Source: Promethearchaeati archaeon (GTDB lineage Archaea > Asgardarchaeota > Heimdallarchaeia > JABLTI01). From it: 38,398 nucleotides of DNA. The notes under the pieces are model-generated. The model worked only from the letters and a program-made list of their open reading frames with translations, was not told the origin of the DNA and did no database searches. Position 1 is the first letter of the stretch; every line of letters starts with the position of its first letter. The stretch spans positions 1 to 38,398 of the forward strand of contig JABLTI010000047.1 in assembly GCA_013166835.1 (NCBI GenBank), read 5' to 3'. The translations under genes and the position numbers were made by a program. Of this stretch, positions 32,754-38,398 are shown piece by piece.

Positions 32754-33791
32754 TCATTCTAAAACTTCTATTGAATCAATAGTTCCAACGCCATCCAAAT
32801 CATATCCTTCAACAACAGTCCTAAATTGCCCTTTTTTGTAACCTTTCAAGATTGTTTGCCAGTTTTTAGTTAATGCAATTATTGCTGCTTTTGTTCCTCG
32901 TCTTCCTTGTCCTGCAAAAGCTATGACTGTTTTAGAGGGATTGTATGGATTTGGAGTCTTGAAAATAATTCCCACATTATTTTGGGAATAGAAGGTTTTG
33001 GGGTCCTTAGATGTTATTCCTCTACCGAATCTTGCGTCGGGAGCAATACCTTGCATATGATTGTCGAAAGCAGGAATATCCAATTTTGTATTAATATCAT
33101 GAGTAACAAGATTTACAGCTGGACCTCCTACTAATATTAGGTTTTGATCTAAAGCCTTCTCAGCTCTGACCTCAACGTCTAGTTTTACGAATAGATCATC
33201 TGGGGTTACGAAAAGTTGCCCCATAAACATTGCCAAATAAATTGCATAATGACCATCTCGTGCCCAAGTTTTATGTGGACCATGAGTGTCAGGAGCACCA
33301 ACTACGATTAGACCATCAAATTTAGAATCTTTATAAAATTCTTTGAAGAATTTTTGCAGAGTATCATCAATTCTTGACTGACTGTTAAAGTGTAATCCCA
33401 TATCTTGAGAACTTAATTCGATCCCATACGCTTTCTCTGTAGTTTTATAGTAACGAGCTTTTGCTCCTCTGATTTCTTTTTCAAAAGCAATGGTTACTAA
33501 ACCTGCTTCTATTAATTGACGAATATGATAGTAGACTTTTTGCTCGTGTAAGCCCATCTCTCGAGCTATATCTGCTGGGAATTTAGGTTCCTTTGCTAAT
33601 TTTTGGAGAATGGTCCATCGAATATCATGTAGTATTGCTTTCATTTCATTTGGGTTTTTGAACATTAGTATGTCTTTAGCAGCATAACCATCTTTGGTTT
33701 TTGATACTATTTTTTTCTTCATTTTATTCGCAACCAATTTCATTGTTTCTTGAGAGTTGTTTCTTTTTGGTTTTCGGTAGATTATTTCCAA
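32754..33791 (-). CDS. ArsR-type HTH regulator with a C-terminal NLILVGGP (S-layer C-terminal-like) domain
   Basis: RWTILQKL…PADIAREMGLHEQKVYYHIRQLIEAGLV; IVVGAPDTHGPH…RDGHYA; NLILVGGPAVN; divergent from glmS. Confidence 0.8.
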   Translation of the reverse strand: MEIIYRKPKRNNSQETMKLVANKMKKKIVSKTKDGYAAKDILMFKNPNEMKAILHDIRWTILQKLAKEPKFPADIAREMGLHEQKVYYHIRQLIEAGLVTIAFEKEIRGAKARYYKTTEKAYGIELSSQDMGLHFNSQSRIDDTLQKFFKEFYKDSKFDGLIVVGAPDTHGPHKTWARDGHYAIYLAMFMGQLFVTPDDLFVKLDVEVRAEKALDQNLILVGGPAVNLVTHDINTKLDIPAFDNHMQGIAPDARFGRGITSKDPKTFYSQNNVGIIFKTPNPYNPSKTVIAFAGQGRRGTKAAIIALTKNWQTILKGYKKGQFRTVVEGYDLDGVGTIDSIEVLE

Positions 33792-34008: not shown

Positions 34009-35781
34009 ATGTGTGGTATAATAGGTTACATTGGTAAAAAAAGAGCTGCACCCATTTTATTTGATTCATTAAAGAAATTGGAATATCGGGGTTATGACAG
34101 TGTTGGTATAGCATCAATAAATGGTGATGCTGAGATTGAAATAAAAAAAGGAGCCGGGAGAATAGAGGCTGTTAATGAACGAATGAACTTCCTATCTGTA
34201 AATGGTTCTATTGGTATTGGTCATACTCGCTGGGCCACTCATGGAGGAGTGGAGGACAAAAATGCGCATCCATTTTTATCTTGTAATGGTCGATTTGCGC
34301 TTGTTCATAATGGAATACTAGAAAACTACCTCGAGTTAAAAGAGGATCTAGTAAAGAAAGGGCATACATTTACATCTGATACAGACACTGAAATTTTGGT
34401 TCATCTAGTTGAGGAAGAGGTGAAGAATAATGGGGAAAAAGATTTAGTAAAAATAATTTCAGATTTAACAAAAATTGCTAAAGGGGCATACACTTTCTTA
34501 TTATTAGATGCTAAAGATCACATTATCTATGCTTTTAGAAAAGACTCACCAATTATTATTGGAATTGGAGAAGATGAACTGTTTGCGTCCTCTGATATTA
34601 CTTCTTTCCTGGAACATACAAACAAAGTAATTATTTTAGAAAATAATCAACTTGCTGTTCTCAAAGAAAAGTATACAATTTATGATACTCAAACAGGAAA
34701 AGAAGTAAAACAGAAAATTACAACCATTGACTGGACTACTGAACAAGCAAGTAAAACTGGTTTTCCACATTTTATGTTGAAAGAGATTTTCGAAGAAGTT
34801 GAAATATCTAAACATTCTTTGGAACAAGATTCCCTAAAGCTAAATGGTATGATAGAGGTTTTATCTAAAGCGAAGAAGGTCTTCTTCCTCGGATCAGGAA
34901 CCTCCTTTCGGGCATGTTTACTTGCTTCAATATACTTTGCTAAGATTGCAAAGAAGCATTTTATGCCAATTCTTGGGTCTGAATACAAGACATATCAGAA
35001 TCTTGTGGACAAGGACACAGTAATATTTGCGATAAGTCAAAGTGGAGAAACTGCAGACGTTCTTCAAGGTATAACTCTTGCTAAAGCAAAAGGAGCTAGA
35101 GTCGTTTCATTGATTAATGTTATTGGTAGCACAATTATGAGAGAATCAGACCAATATCTCACGTTAAATTCTGGACCCGAAATCGCAGTAGCTTCTACCA
35201 AGGCATTTATTTCACAAGTATTAATCTTGACTTTACTGGCTTTCGGAGTAGCTGATAGATTGAAAGAAGGACGAGAACACTTGTATGAAGTTGTCAGAAA
35301 ACTCGAGAGTATAATGAACCAATCGGATTCTATTGCCATGCTATCTAAAGATGTTCTCAATAAGAATGATCTCTACCTTATTGGAAGAGGAGTTTCTTTT
35401 CCGATTGCAATGGAAGGTGAACTAAAAATAAAAGAAATCGCATACATTCATGCAGATGCTCTTGCTGGTGGGGAATTAAAGCATCACACTTTAGCATTAA
35501 TAGAACCGGGTGTTACTTGCATTGCGTTAGTTCCAAATGATGATACTAAAGATGACATGATTAACAACATTATGCAGATAAAAGCTCGAGGTGGGGAGAT
35601 AATCGGAATTTCATCAGAACACTTGGAGTTATTTGACCACTATATTCCCATTCCAAAAGTTCACCTCGAACCCCTTCTAATGATTCCAGTACTACAACTT
35701 ATCTCCTACTATCTCTCTGTCATCCGCGGAAATGATCCTGACTTCCCTAGAAACCTTGCTAAATCAGTTACTGTACTCTAA
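34009..35781 (+). CDS. glmS: Glutamine--fructose-6-phosphate aminotransferase
   Basis: MCGIIG, LEYRGYDS, GHTRWATHG, HNGI, SQSGETAD, VASTKAF, PRNLAKSVTV. Confidence 0.97.
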   Translation: MCGIIGYIGKKRAAPILFDSLKKLEYRGYDSVGIASINGDAEIEIKKGAGRIEAVNERMNFLSVNGSIGIGHTRWATHGGVEDKNAHPFLSCNGRFALVHNGILENYLELKEDLVKKGHTFTSDTDTEILVHLVEEEVKNNGEKDLVKIISDLTKIAKGAYTFLLLDAKDHIIYAFRKDSPIIIGIGEDELFASSDITSFLEHTNKVIILENNQLAVLKEKYTIYDTQTGKEVKQKITTIDWTTEQASKTGFPHFMLKEIFEEVEISKHSLEQDSLKLNGMIEVLSKAKKVFFLGSGTSFRACLLASIYFAKIAKKHFMPILGSEYKTYQNLVDKDTVIFAISQSGETADVLQGITLAKAKGARVVSLINVIGSTIMRESDQYLTLNSGPEIAVASTKAFISQVLILTLLAFGVADRLKEGREHLYEVVRKLESIMNQSDSIAMLSKDVLNKNDLYLIGRGVSFPIAMEGELKIKEIAYIHADALAGGELKHHTLALIEPGVTCIALVPNDDTKDDMINNIMQIKARGGEIIGISSEHLELFDHYIPIPKVHLEPLLMIPVLQLISYYLSVIRGNDPDFPRNLAKSVTVL

Positions 35782-35907
35782 ATCATTTCTTTTTTTATCT
35801 TCTATTTTACCTATAGTCAACATATAAAATAATAAAACAAAAAAATAATATTAAACAATCAAATATTTAATTAAATGATTGTTTATTGTTTTAAATCACT
35901 GCATTCA

Positions 35908-35922
35908 CGATAAGTTTATATA
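35908..35922 (+). promoter_or_regulatory. Archaeal BRE-TATA promoter of nrdR-nrdD
   Basis: CGATAAG-TTTATATA; would put the transcription start near 35945-35950. Confidence 0.6.
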
Positions 35923-35948
35923 TAAAATGTTCTGAACTTTATATCGAT

Positions 35949-35964
35949 ATACAAGATGTTGTGT
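35949..35964. promoter_or_regulatory. NrdR box 1
   Basis: ATACAAGATGTTGTGT matches consensus acaCwAtATaTwGtgt at 13/16, with all strongly conserved positions intact. Confidence 0.75.
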
Positions 35965-35979
35965 TTAGGGGAAAAAATA

Positions 35980-35995
35980 CCACTAGGAATGGTAT
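35980..35995. promoter_or_regulatory. NrdR box 2 (degenerate)
   Basis: CCACTAGGAATGGTAT keeps caCTA…aT.Gt.t; starts 31 bp after box 1 (15-bp spacer), the usual tandem NrdR-box spacing. Confidence 0.55.
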
Positions 35996-36100
35996 GCTCT
36001 GGTTAGTACCAGAACCACTTTAAATAGCCTAGAATGGGTGCCAATCCCCGAAAAAATGACCAAAAGAGGTCAAAACAGAAATTTAGCCGGAAGAAAAACG

Positions 36101-38398
36101 ATGAAGTGCCCGTATTGTCAGTCACCAAACACTCGAGTTGTTGACAAACGATTATCTGACGACATGAAAGTAAATCGCAGAAGAAGAGAATGTCTCCAAT
36201 GTAATAAGCGATTTACCACCTACGAACGAGTAGATGATGTCAAACTTTCTGTTATCAAAAAGGATAAGAGAAGAGAACCTTTCAGTCGAGACAAAATGAA
36301 ATCCGGCATTGTTAGAGCTTGCGAGAAACGACCCATTAGCATGGAAGAAATCGATGAAATAGTAGATGAAATCGAGAGCGAACTAAGAAAATTAGAGGAA
36401 ACAGAGATTGATGCTCAAATCATCGGCGAGAAAGTAATGGAGAAACTTCGCGAACTTGATGAGGTCGCTTATATTAGATTTGCTTCTGTTTATAGACGGT
36501 TCACTGACTTAGCTTCTTTTGAAAGAGAATTAGAGAAATTGAAGGTAGTTAAAGAGATCCAAGTGAAAGGACAAGATTCCACTGAACTTCTATTATTAGT
36601 TTCAGGTGACACCAAAGAAGAAATCTCAGGGTGGAATCGAGCTAAAATCACAGCAGCATTAATCAAAGAAGCTGGATTAGAAAAAATGGATGCAGAATCA
36701 ATTGCAGCAGAAGTAGAACGCAAAATATTCGCATCTGGGATCGATGTTATTTCTGTTGATTTAATTAGAAGCTTAGTAGACAATGAACTCTTTGTAAGAG
36801 GATTTGCTACAAAACTCTTACAACAAAGAAGCATTGGTATACCAACTTATGATTTGAATCAATTAATTCATTCAAAGAGTAAAGAAAATAGCAATGTTGT
36901 AGCAAATAATCCCGAAGCAGTTAATCTAGCTATTGCTGAAACAATCTTGAAGAAATACGCTTTACAAGAAATGTTTTCTCCAGAAGTGGCAAATGCTCAT
37001 CGAAAAGGTAAGATATATTTACACGATCTTGGCTTTCCAGTCAGGGTGTATTGTTCTGCACACAGTTTGGAGTACATCAAGAAATATGGGTTAAATTTGT
37101 TGAATCTTTCAACTGTTTCAAGCCCAGCCAAACATGCAGACACACTAACAGGTCATCTCAATACGTTCCTTGCGTCAATGCAAGCCTATTATGCAGGTGC
37201 ACTAGGTCTCGCTTACCTTAACATCTTCTATGCCCCATTCTTTGTAGGGGTTCCATATGAGCAAATAAAACAAGAAGCTGTTCCAAATTATCTAAAGGAT
37301 ATTCCAGCAATCGGCCCAGGTGGAAAATACACTGGCAAAACCTATGGTGAATATGAAAAAGAAACACAACTTTTTGCTAAAGCACTCATGGATGTTTGGT
37401 TGGAAGGAGACGCTCAAGGAAAAGTCTTTCCATTTCCTAAATTTGATCTTCATATTGATCAGAGTTCCTTTGATGACAAAGAGCAATTAAAATTACTCAA
37501 GCATGCTTGTAAAATTGCCTCTGAGAATGGATCGACCTACTTCATATTTGATAGAGATGAAGTGAATCTCTCCATGTGTTGTCGATTAAAGACTACAATC
37601 AAAGACATGTATATGATCGAGCATCCTGAAAGTATGAGATATTGTGGGTTCCAAAATGTAAGCATAAATCTACCACAAGCAGCCTATCGAGCTGGCAAAG
37701 GAAAAATCAAAGACTGTATTGAAGAAATTAAAGCAGCCATGGATATAGCTATGCAAGGCCATTTAGAAAAGAAAGAATTTATCCATCAGCTCATGACTCA
37801 AGAACGAGGTACTCTCTGGCAAATAGGAAAAATTGCAGAAGATGGTAGACCTTATGTTGACTTAGAAAAGGCAACCTATATTATCGGGGTAATTGGACTC
37901 AATGAATGCGTCCAATATTTAATTGGAGAACAAATGCATGAAAGTGAGAAAGCATACAAGCTTGGATTAAGAATCATTGCAGGTATGAATCTCAAAGCAA
38001 AAGACTTACAGGAAAAGAACGGTATAACTGTAACCTTAGAAGAAACTCCAGGAGAAAGTGCCCCATACAAATTCGCAAGAACAGATATTCAAGAATACCC
38101 TGATAGCATCCATTATGTGAAAGGAGATATTGAAGAAGGAGCGATATACTATACCAATAGTGCCCACTTTGCAGCAGATGCTCAAATAGACATTATTGAT
38201 CGAATCTCCAAACAGGGTAAATTTAACACCTTAATTGAAAGTGGATCTATCACTCACATTTTCATAGGTGAACAGAAGATATCTTCTGAATCAATATTAA
38301 ATCTAGTGAAGAAAACTTGGGAAAATACCCAGAGCGCACAAATTGTTTTCTCACCAGAATTCACAGTCTGTCAAGATTGTGGAAAATTAAGTAGGGGT
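36101..38398 (+). CDS. nrdR-nrdD: NrdR repressor fused in frame to class III anaerobic ribonucleoside-triphosphate reductase; truncated by the window end (766 codons visible)
   Basis: MKCPYC…TRVVDKR…NRRRRECLQCNKRFTTYER…REPFSRDK…RACEKRPIS…LDEVAYIRFASVYRRF (NrdR); no stop; second ATP cone WNRAKI…LIRSLVDNEL; KENSN..NNPE, AHRKGKIYLHDL, VYC, PFPK, SMCCRL, QNVSINLPQ, EETPGES, YYTNS, VCQDCG (NrdD). Confidence 0.93.
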   Translation, partial: MKCPYCQSPNTRVVDKRLSDDMKVNRRRRECLQCNKRFTTYERVDDVKLSVIKKDKRREPFSRDKMKSGIVRACEKRPISMEEIDEIVDEIESELRKLEETEIDAQIIGEKVMEKLRELDEVAYIRFASVYRRFTDLASFERELEKLKVVKEIQVKGQDSTELLLLVSGDTKEEISGWNRAKITAALIKEAGLEKMDAESIAAEVERKIFASGIDVISVDLIRSLVDNELFVRGFATKLLQQRSIGIPTYDLNQLIHSKSKENSNVVANNPEAVNLAIAETILKKYALQEMFSPEVANAHRKGKIYLHDLGFPVRVYCSAHSLEYIKKYGLNLLNLSTVSSPAKHADTLTGHLNTFLASMQAYYAGALGLAYLNIFYAPFFVGVPYEQIKQEAVPNYLKDIPAIGPGGKYTGKTYGEYEKETQLFAKALMDVWLEGDAQGKVFPFPKFDLHIDQSSFDDKEQLKLLKHACKIASENGSTYFIFDRDEVNLSMCCRLKTTIKDMYMIEHPESMRYCGFQNVSINLPQAAYRAGKGKIKDCIEEIKAAMDIAMQGHLEKKEFIHQLMTQERGTLWQIGKIAEDGRPYVDLEKATYIIGVIGLNECVQYLIGEQMHESEKAYKLGLRIIAGMNLKAKDLQEKNGITVTLEETPGESAPYKFARTDIQEYPDSIHYVKGDIEEGAIYYTNSAHFAADAQIDIIDRISKQGKFNTLIESGSITHIFIGEQKISSESILNLVKKTWENTQSAQIVFSPEFTVCQDCGKLSRG

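Follow-up and report, generated by a model that had tools for sequence, protein, structure and literature searches.

A complete NrdR module fused to an anaerobic ribonucleotide reductase core in a Heimdallarchaeia family and in DPANN archaea

Introduction

Can a ribonucleotide reductase (RNR) carry a repressor of its own synthesis on the same polypeptide, and could such an enzyme then be its own transcription factor? The question is raised by the last gene of contig JABLTI010000047.1 (GenBank assembly GCA_013166835.1), a stretch of 38,398 nt from a Heimdallarchaeia archaeon, in which an ATG at position 36101 opens a frame that encodes the repressor NrdR followed by the class III RNR NrdD. This stretch is the entire contig (C115 in our set), it ends inside the fused gene, and we refer to it below as the window. 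We find that the fusion is genuine and recurs in relatives of the window's genome and in other archaea, and our preferred reading, which we hold to be moderately probable, is that the protein serves as an RNR core and also represses its own operon, the NrdR cone being the single competent nucleotide sensor.

Two couplings of dNTP supply to dNTP levels are well known, one acting on transcription through NrdR and the other on enzyme activity through the ATP cone. Here both are found on one chain, with the NrdR cone in the seat of the enzyme's activity-site cone. Database names for such proteins say either 'NrdR' or 'anaerobic RNR', and each search overlooks half of the protein.

Results and discussion

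Domain content of the fused gene

The frame read from the ATG at 36101 runs to 38398 on the + strand without a stop and encodes 766 residues, which bears out the original prediction, made from the sequence alone, of a single polypeptide reaching the window end. It appears in the ORF (open reading frame) listing, as 36038..38398 and open at the 3' end, only when open ends are allowed. The full-length fused proteins of seven relatives are 806–808 aa long and continue for 14 residues past the window end. The parts of the gene are as follows.

36101..36226, + strand: NrdR Zn ribbon, residues 1–42, with two CxxC, the RRRR motif, D15 and R17 (PF22811)
36248..36541, + strand: NrdR-type ATP cone and C-terminal NrdR helix, residues 50–147 (PF03477, TIGR00244 and alignment with NrdR chains)
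36542..36592, + strand: linker, residues 148–164, homologous in alignment to the inter-cone linker of unfused NrdD relatives
36593..36865, + strand: degenerate second ATP cone, residues 165–255 (PF03477, 25.4 bits)
36884..38398, + strand: NrdD catalytic core, residues 262–766, cut by the contig end (PF13597, CCRL)

The N-terminal part is a complete NrdR, as had been predicted. The Zn ribbon of Pfam (PF22811) matches residues 1–42 with 64.6 bits (cut-off 27.2), its CxxC pairs being C3 and C6 and C31 and C34, and the NrdR equivalog of NCBIfam (TIGR00244) is matched over the whole model, residues 1–147 of 147, with 193.8 bits against a cut-off of 124.65. Over the same 147 residues the alignment with solved chains of bacterial NrdR (9fvr, E 1.6e-40; 7p37, E 1.9e-31) has no gaps. 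At 806 aa the fused protein is far longer than a free NrdR of 140–220 residues, and it does not qualify as a free-standing one.

Pfam finds the ATP-cone in two stretches, the best of them at residues 50–136. This first cone is NrdR's own and matches PF03477 over its full length with 87.7 bits; the second is weak, with 25.4 bits (cut-off 25.8) over profile positions 13–68 of 88. Two nucleotide-sensing cones had been proposed for the protein, and while the second is present as a PF03477 stretch, its degenerate state lends no support to a sensing role. The NrdD assignment was upheld by both hidden Markov models (HMMs) used, with PF13597 (NRDD) matching residues 262–762 with 335.1 bits (cut-off 26.2) at profile positions 1–516 of 562, and TIGR02487 giving a narrow pass with 330.3 bits for a window copy which is 28 residues short. 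The part of the core within the window includes the finger-loop CCRL (C521, C522, R523 and L524) and the first CxxC of the C-terminal Zn site; CCRL is invariant in an alignment of 19 diverse fused proteins (alignment A1) and aligns with the CCRL of the T. maritima NrdD (4coi).

Assembly evidence for the junction

Such a gene might be put down to mis-assembly in a metagenome bin or to a decaying locus, and two observations lean that way: the source bin (260 contigs, 3.56 Mb, 34% G+C) is 84.75% complete and 6.79% contaminated, and the window's copy is without 84 nt of conserved core. We compared 36000–38398 with the contigs of three DNA runs from three studies (X1, X2 and X5) and of one metatranscriptome run (X7). 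The junction is spanned with 0 differences by X1 record 1 (36000–37278), X2 record 9 and X5 record 13 (36000–36811), and the RNA-run contig X7 record 18 (36501–36830) also bridges it, so that the contigs of all four runs have neither the stop nor the indel at the NrdR/NrdD join which the original prediction had considered. The X7 contigs cover 23 of 30 bins; RNA libraries can contain DNA and hence this is no proof of expression.

37278..37279, + strand: site where the window is 84 nt (28 codons of conserved core) short, compared with run contigs and relatives

At this site the X2 and X5 contigs have 84 extra letters, while the X1 contigs end there with loose ends that run into the missing segment. 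The 28-residue segment is present in 7/7 relatives and in database protein P0002, which has 806 aa and is identical to the window's protein apart from this segment. The deleted form was not seen in the X1, X2 or X5 contigs, and since each of the three DNA runs has the 84 nt, the gap is a feature of this assembly rather than of the gene; we attribute it to an error of assembly or to a rare variant in the window contig. Close relatives carry the fused gene rather than a separate pair (nine of the eleven other genomes of the family), as do hundreds of database proteins. The fusion is not an assembly error, and sequence comparison indicates that it is under purifying selection. With a clean junction in independent runs and the fusion kept in relatives, the artefact explanation is refuted and we regard what is left of it as negligible.

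Distribution of fused NrdR–NrdD proteins

Within the family the NrdR model matches 8/10 other genomes of the same genus and 1/1 of the sister genus, whereas it has 0/29 matches among genomes of other families of the class. These matches lie in open frames of 804–850 codons, bar one cut by a contig end, and the copies of the seven full-length relatives are 80.5–96.7% identical to the window's, linker included. The genomes of the window's genus are labelled Heimdallarchaeota, in keeping with the archaeal host. Across 251 sampled Asgard genomes NrdR scored over the cut-off in seven, six of them from this family and one with a stand-alone NrdR (a 177-codon frame). We note that one locus publicly labelled Candidatus Bathyarchaeia (L032) is the same contig as G009:C4, from a genome placed in the window's genus, and that the fused protein of this locus clusters with those of Heimdall, so the public label seems mistaken.

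The architecture is not a one-off. A protein search with query residues 1–260 returned 265 proteins of 421–1341 aa (E <=1e-5), and PF22811, PF03477 and PF13597 occur together in 116 of the best 120, which were listed. The sources of the listed proteins include Heimdallarchaeota, the Asgard group, Aenigmatarchaeota, Micrarchaeota, Woesearchaeota and others, and some bear the JGI (Joint Genome Institute) name 'anaerobic ribonucleoside-triphosphate reductase/transcriptional regulator NrdR'.

We also scanned loci, taking one genome per species and the best 80 of 548 relatives, which were classified by HMMs made from our own alignment. NrdR, second cone and NrdD core share one frame in 21/80 loci, all archaea-labelled (Heimdall, Nanohalarchaeota, Woesearchaeota, Micrarchaeota, Nanoarchaeia, Parvarchaeota and two Methanosarcinales). 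A separate nrdR ORF lies upstream on the same strand in 53/80, which are mostly bacterial (Planctomycetota including anammox lineages, Omnitrophota, Elusimicrobiota, Clostridia, Atribacterota and Caldisericota) plus two Woesearchaeota, and the remaining six were unclassifiable, five being cut at a contig end and one having a cone but no ribbon. NrdR is not marginal in archaea on this evidence, but would be what one NrdD lineage regularly has as its N-terminus, in DPANN and in one Heimdall family.

A second fused type (P0097 and similar proteins) has a different NrdD as its body. Identity to it is 34% overall, the NrdR module being visibly much better conserved than the body in the BLASTP alignment, and in this type NrdR is followed by a canonical cone, while the frame also contains the radical domain. 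The existence of two differently built fused types suggests that the junction arose at least twice.

Some individual members of the set deserve mention. P0083 (1323 aa) and P0106 (1129 aa) combine the fused NrdR–NrdD with an intein/homing-endonuclease domain (PF14528), P0083 also having PF14890 and PF05204. In the fused gene of an uncultured archaeon (L047:4558–4560) an in-frame TGA stands for the first Cys of CCRL (..TLSA*CRLK..), which could be a sequencing error, a pseudogene or selenocysteine at the catalytic-site cysteine; its truncated 519-aa product (P0091) has the database name 'Transcriptional repressor NrdR'.

Origin of the fusion

The unfused NrdD proteins of this subfamily which were scanned with Pfam (L056 and L082) have two cones, and in L056, the one bacterial relative scored, cone 1 is canonical (93.9 bits) and cone 2 degenerate and partial (27.3 bits). 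When fused proteins were aligned with bacterial and Woesearchaeota NrdD N-termini, the two kinds proved collinear starting at the inter-cone linker, while the NrdR cone lay over NrdD cone 1, and the linker is conserved among the eight Heimdall proteins. The alignment indicates that NrdR replaced the canonical first ATP cone of NrdD. The simplest history would be a deletion from the nrdR stop through NrdD cone 1 within an nrdR–nrdD operon. The ancestral pair would have been of the kind still present in bacterial and some Woesearchaeota relatives, and afterwards the fused gene would have passed between DPANN archaea and entered one Heimdall family.

A maximum-likelihood tree was made of 77 cores, broken or partial ones (L047, L059 and L077) being excluded; it is rooted at the midpoint only and gives no direction. 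A branch with 99% SH-aLRT (Shimodaira–Hasegawa-like approximate likelihood ratio test) support parts an archaea-labelled clade of 25 rows from a bacteria-labelled clade of 52. The former has 20 fused, four separate and one unknown, and includes the bacteria-labelled L051 (Berkelbacteria, of the candidate phyla radiation, CPR) and L052 ('bacterium'), whereas there are 0 fused in the latter; the radical domain is split off in 23/25 rows of the archaea-labelled clade. The five Heimdall rows form one clade within a DPANN-rich group, and this placement, together with the restricted distribution among Asgard genomes, fits a transfer of the fused gene from DPANN-like donors into one Heimdall family.

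The linker also bears on whether two proteins might be made from the one ORF, with internal initiation or proteolysis in the linker freeing NrdR and NrdD from each other, so that regulation would run as it does in bacteria. The linker is about 17 residues long, residues 131–177 have a predicted local distance difference test score (pLDDT) <50 in the AlphaFold2 (AF2) model, and there is an in-frame GTG at 36563, which had been proposed as the start of an NrdD-only isoform. That codon is GTG in just 4/8 relatives, GTA in three and ATT in one, and we dismissed it as a conserved internal start; nor is the sole in-frame ATG between residues 120 and 265 (residue 196) conserved in relatives. The linker is moreover strongly conserved and homologous to the internal linker of NrdD, and the two differently joined architectures, with a degenerate or a canonical cone after NrdR, argue that the covalent link itself is selected. 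We consider it improbable that the two halves act as separate proteins.

DNA-contact residues and promoter elements

In the cryo-EM structure of S. coelicolor NrdR, the passages of PMC9110341 available to us assign backbone contacts to R12, R26–29 and R37 and specificity to D15 and R17, describe a tetramer bound to two boxes about three helical turns apart, and place bacterial NrdR boxes over the transcription start. All of R12, D15, R17, R26–29 and R37 are present at the same positions in the fused protein, and across 19 diverse fused proteins R17, R27–29 and R37 are invariant and D15 is >=90% conserved. The following elements were found upstream of the gene.

35908..35927, + strand: candidate archaeal promoter, CGATAAG (resembling a B recognition element, BRE) then TATA box TTTATATATAAAA, conserved in eight Heimdall upstream regions
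35949..35964, no strand assigned: NrdR-box-like palindrome 1, 16 nt, 3 mismatches to the NrdR-box consensus, conserved in 8/8 Heimdall upstream regions
35980..35995, no strand assigned: NrdR-box-like palindrome 2, CCAC..TGG core, 6 mismatches, starting 31 bp after box 1

The TATA box itself is at 35915–35927, and the conservation of the block in the alignment of eight Heimdall upstream regions makes it a promoter candidate. Box 1 begins about 22 nt beyond the TATA box, at the distance expected for an archaeal transcription start; in L042, the closest relative, a box with 4 mismatches stands at the same offset of 31 bp as box 2.

The 16-nt box consensus we used was reportedly defined by Rodionov and Gelfand in 2005. 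Sites with <=3 mismatches within 250 nt upstream were counted, with 200 dinucleotide shuffles as the control. At least one was found at 15/22 fused loci, which come from several archaeal lineages (shuffle mean 0.33, maximum 3) and at 29/52 separate nrdR loci, for which 0.40 were expected from shuffles; the latter enrichment validates the motif on these data. A spacing of 31 bp is frequent in bacterial nrdR loci, and in fused loci pairs are spaced by 31 (L032 and L042), 32 (L046), 33 (L041) and also 39 and 41 bp. The DNA-contact residues, the box pair and the box enrichment agree with the predicted role of the enzyme as its own transcription factor, so far as sequence can speak to it.

In the main rival reading the NrdR module would serve allostery or oligomerisation only, having taken over from the lost activity-site cone the sensing of ATP/dATP that switches the enzyme, its Zn ribbon making protein–protein contacts and DNA binding being vestigial or absent. 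Such a role would suit a cone that sits exactly at the seat of the canonical first cone of unfused relatives, in an enzyme which would otherwise be without an activity site because the remaining cone is degenerate, and it would account for the weak second box of the window and for the 7/22 fused loci (L033, L036 and L045–L049) that have no <=3-mismatch box. It would leave unexplained the invariance of R17, R27–29 and R37 and the near invariance of D15, residues with no known role besides DNA contact, as well as the roughly 45-fold excess of boxes over shuffles upstream of fused genes and the 31 bp spacing kept in those Heimdall loci scored for both boxes (L032, L042 and the window). Unfused relatives of the L086 type have two cones and no Zn ribbon, which suggests that the ribbon is not required by the enzyme. 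We therefore think an allosteric module without DNA binding unlikely, and prefer an NrdR module that would still act at its own promoter.

A search of 35500–36400 against Rfam (E up to 1) gave no RNA family, and there is no known riboswitch in the leader of about 150 nt. Just past box 2, at 35999–36012 in the presumed leader, there is a short inverted repeat, able to form a hairpin with 5-nt arms and a 4-nt loop, which is only partly conserved among the Heimdall relatives.

A separate glycyl-radical subunit and the downstream operon

A C-terminal CxxC…RxxGY loop had been expected in the same polypeptide once the contig was extended, and it is absent. The relatives' proteins end 14 residues after the first CxxC, with no second CxxC and no RxxGY, and the match of the window's protein to the NRDD profile stops at 516 of 562. 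Directly downstream, in 7/7 Heimdall relatives, there is a separate ORF of 77–81 aa, in varying frames and with stops between, which has CxxC, about nine residues and then SRVVGY, and which in Pfam matches NRDD profile positions 519–561 and not pyruvate formate-lyase (PFL). The radical domain is likewise a separate ORF in 19 of the 21 fused loci, being in frame in two. In six of the 29 listed split loci (four of them fused) the small ORF starts 3 nt short of the first position after the core's stop codon. Small radical ORFs of 50–101 aa have their own start codons, with G50, R47, C34 and C37 invariant in 25 sequences, and the protein collection holds 91 clusters of small radical proteins of 43–139 aa.

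The small gene is present in 12/12 family genomes, with three copies in eight, two in three and one in one. The window's genome has two assembled copies, both unlinked (on C59 and C94). The first, at G000:C59:11416–11646 (+), lies beside two ORFs that resemble roadblock/LC7-type genes by eye, and the second, at about G000:C94:3070–3250 (-), lies between genes resembling, again by eye, a beta-lactamase-fold protein and uvrA. No NrdR box was seen by eye in the 220 nt (C59) and 330 nt (C94) upstream of these two genes.

We predicted a complex of core residues 262–806 with the small protein and Zn, alongside three controls. The complex scored 0.92 and the best control 0.00, a mark of 0.92 being reached by 58/80 solved complexes and by 2/110 mismatched pairs; the runs share >=77% of contacts, and the partner has pLDDT >=66. 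The model sets C785 and C788 of the core against C34 and C37 of the partner and has finger-loop residues 522–523 in the interface. The pass may reflect only the likeness of the two proteins to split halves of contiguous solved NrdDs.

Further downstream the relatives have an 86-aa thioredoxin/glutaredoxin-like protein with CPNC and then, in all seven, a 234-aa NrdG-type activase of the radical-SAM (S-adenosylmethionine) kind, both identified with Pfam. In the window's genome the end of C126 carries the C-terminus of the redoxin and NrdG (TIGR02495, 195.2 bits, cut-off 131.15), which indicates that the operon continues there with about 450 nt unassembled; the nrdG gene expected downstream is thus found both in this genome and in the relatives.

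Other departures from the usual radical loop were seen among bacterial loci. L055, L069 and L075 have split radical subunits of about 100 aa, without CxxC and with an unrelated N-terminal extension, which lie downstream of NrdD cores with a different C-terminal tail. NrdD homologues adjoining nrdR in L083, L094, L102 and L096 (Brocadiales and related Planctomycetota) and in L090 and L092 have an altered C-terminal loop without the radical glycine at its usual place, e.g. ..IQRLDSYE.. compared with ..TRIVGYFS.. of relatives, except that the glycine is kept in L094 (..IQRLDGYK..) in a loop otherwise altered alike. In anammox-type bacteria these homologues may be paralogues that use no radical or are activated in another way.

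Proposed function and mechanism

The gene product would be the large subunit of a class III (glycyl-radical) RNR with NrdR in place of the activity-site cone. Matches to PF02867 (class I/II) were found in 0/12 family genomes and this NrdD is the only RNR seen; as no other RNR was found in these genomes, the 806-aa protein would be a working RNR core. The radical subunit of about 80 aa would complete it in trans, supplying the second CxxC of the Zn site and the radical glycine, and the NrdH-like redoxin and the NrdG activase encoded downstream would serve it. The sequences show the architecture, its conservation and origin, the boxes and the DNA-contact residues; what we infer for this protein takes in DNA binding, catalysis, the oligomer logic and complementation in trans.

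On a rise in dATP the NrdR module would bind the two boxes that overlap the expected transcription start and so repress the synthesis of the protein. NrdR occupies DNA as a tetramer whereas NrdD is dimeric, so two NrdD dimers would have to associate before the protein could bind DNA, and the same cone-driven association may inhibit catalysis. PMC11226230 describes, in the part available to us, a cryo-EM structure of P. copri NrdD as a dATP-bound tetramer, and with this and the NrdR tetramer on DNA both published, it may be by the formation of a dimer of dimers that inhibition and repression are coupled. In its fullest form the proposal is that one association of two NrdD dimers would silence catalysis and gather four Zn ribbons on the two boxes at the start of transcription of the operon, and that the radical subunit would be detachable, with two unlinked paralogues per genome, so that a radical site destroyed by oxygen could be swapped and the 806-aa core not remade. 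The whole combination (an enzyme with its own dATP-sensing repressor, inhibition and repression as one event, a detachable radical subunit, at least two fusions and a crossing between DPANN and Heimdall) is plausible, and we put it forward tentatively.

A number of points weigh against our preferred reading of the protein as RNR and autorepressor. On the side of the enzyme, the cut-off of TIGR02487 is exceeded only narrowly (330.3 vs 326.35), the core is far from all solved NrdDs (best E 3.9e-17), and the metagenome-assembled genomes (MAGs) are 64–92% complete, so that a second RNR could be missing from the assemblies. On the side of the promoter, the box consensus is validated only internally, by its enrichment upstream of bacterial nrdR genes; sites with <=3 mismatches number 102 across the window's genome and do not single out the nrd promoter; box 2, as noted, has 6 mismatches and some fused loci have no good box; and the 22 fused loci are not independent, six being from Heimdall and four from close Nanohalarchaeota relatives. 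The AF2 model of the whole 806-aa protein (19-row alignment; mean pLDDT 58.3, predicted template modelling score, pTM, 0.45) is too poor for judging domain geometry, and an enzyme body of about 75–90 kDa per NrdR module might sterically hinder the DNA-bending tetramer. We know of no experiment on any fused NrdR–NrdD protein.

Comparison with known systems

The N-terminal module shares with stand-alone bacterial NrdR (9fvr/9fxk, E. coli-type; 7p37, S. coelicolor) the Zn ribbon, RRRR, D15/R17 and the NrdR-type cone, and also a pair of palindromic boxes, roughly three turns of the helix from each other, in the promoter of an RNR operon. It differs in being joined covalently to the enzyme it would regulate and in its archaeal host with a TATA-box promoter; NrdR is called rare or absent in archaea in those parts of recent NrdR papers available to us. 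With class III NrdD the protein has in common the NRDD core, CCRL, the first CxxC of the Zn site, NrdG in the operon and a cone-bearing N-terminus, but the fused core is distant from the solved ones, its cone 1 is replaced by NrdR and the radical domain is encoded separately.

Trigger enzymes with a DNA-binding domain of their own include PutA, BirA and NadR. They resemble what we propose here in that one polypeptide would be both pathway enzyme and operon repressor, with a metabolite choosing the state. They differ in that the DNA-binding part of the fused protein is a whole repressor, one dedicated to this very pathway and elsewhere autonomous.

The nearest relatives are the nrdR–nrdD pairs of Planctomycetota, Omnitrophota, Elusimicrobiota, Clostridia and some Woesearchaeota (L051–L109), which belong to the same NrdD subfamily (tblastn identity 53–60% in most loci and 51–64% over L051–L109). 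These have boxes upstream of nrdR, a homologous inter-cone linker and a degenerate second cone, but they are two genes and NrdD retains a canonical cone 1 (93.9 bits in L056, the sole one scored). The radical domain is in the core's frame in 43/52 rows of the bacterial clade, as judged by HMM hits, the glycine itself lying outside this test.

Two further parallels concern the radical subunit and the fusion of operon genes. The 'spare part' GrcA/YfiD of PFL, the subject of PMC8683613, is likewise a small autonomous radical-loop protein docking into a large enzyme, and several copies per genome are common to both (three in 8/12 genomes here). Proteins of the GrcA type are homologous to the PFL C-terminus and rescue an oxygen-cleaved enzyme which has a radical domain itself. 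The present protein is of the NrdD and not the PFL type, it would supply half of a Zn(Cys)4 site according to the model, and as the core is without a radical domain of its own, it is presumably an obligate subunit rather than a repair part. The eukaryotic NrdD–NrdG fusion (Lundin et al. 2010, PMC3019208, again from part of the text) also joins neighbouring genes of a class III operon and is linked to horizontal transfer, but the partner there is the activase and here the repressor.

Both protein families are already known, as are enzyme–repressor precedents, and the sequences are public under automatic names. We found no paper describing an NrdR–RNR fusion in its main text (supplements, e.g. 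that of the GTDB NrdR survey in PMC9110341, might list sequences), nor any on NrdR in DPANN or Asgard archaea or on a split NrdD radical subunit. The fusion is unmentioned in the passages available to us of 10.1101/2025.03.28.645925, PMC3019208, PMC12051234, PMC11226230, PMC9110341, PMC9669993, PMC12662201 and 10.1101/2025.07.27.667033.

The fusion provides a natural test of whether the NrdR and NrdD cone types are interchangeable, whether the NrdR tetramer-on-DNA mechanism can work with an enzyme of about 75–90 kDa on each subunit, and whether repression and inhibition can be a single event, and it does so in a Heimdall family in which no other RNR was seen. The system has a second undescribed feature, the split-off glycyl-radical subunit, which bears on how strict anaerobes handle oxygen damage to glycyl-radical enzymes.

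Neighbouring genes

34009..35781, + strand: glmS, conserved upstream neighbour (Pfam SIS and GATase domains)

A frame of 588–611 aa with an MCGIIGY start, at or within the frame, lies upstream in 6/7 relatives' loci; the locus of L021 (G003:C90) stops short of the glmS position. Divergent from glmS in the window, at 32754–33791 (-), is an ORF with an ArsR/HTH_20 DNA-binding domain and an S-layer-like outer domain, a homologue of which (a gene of about 322 aa) flanks glmS in relatives. At the other end of the operon, synteny after nrdG is also conserved, with a eukaryotic-type DNA topoisomerase IB (Topoisom_I_N, Topoisom_I and Topo_C_assoc; L017:7531–9369) as the next gene.

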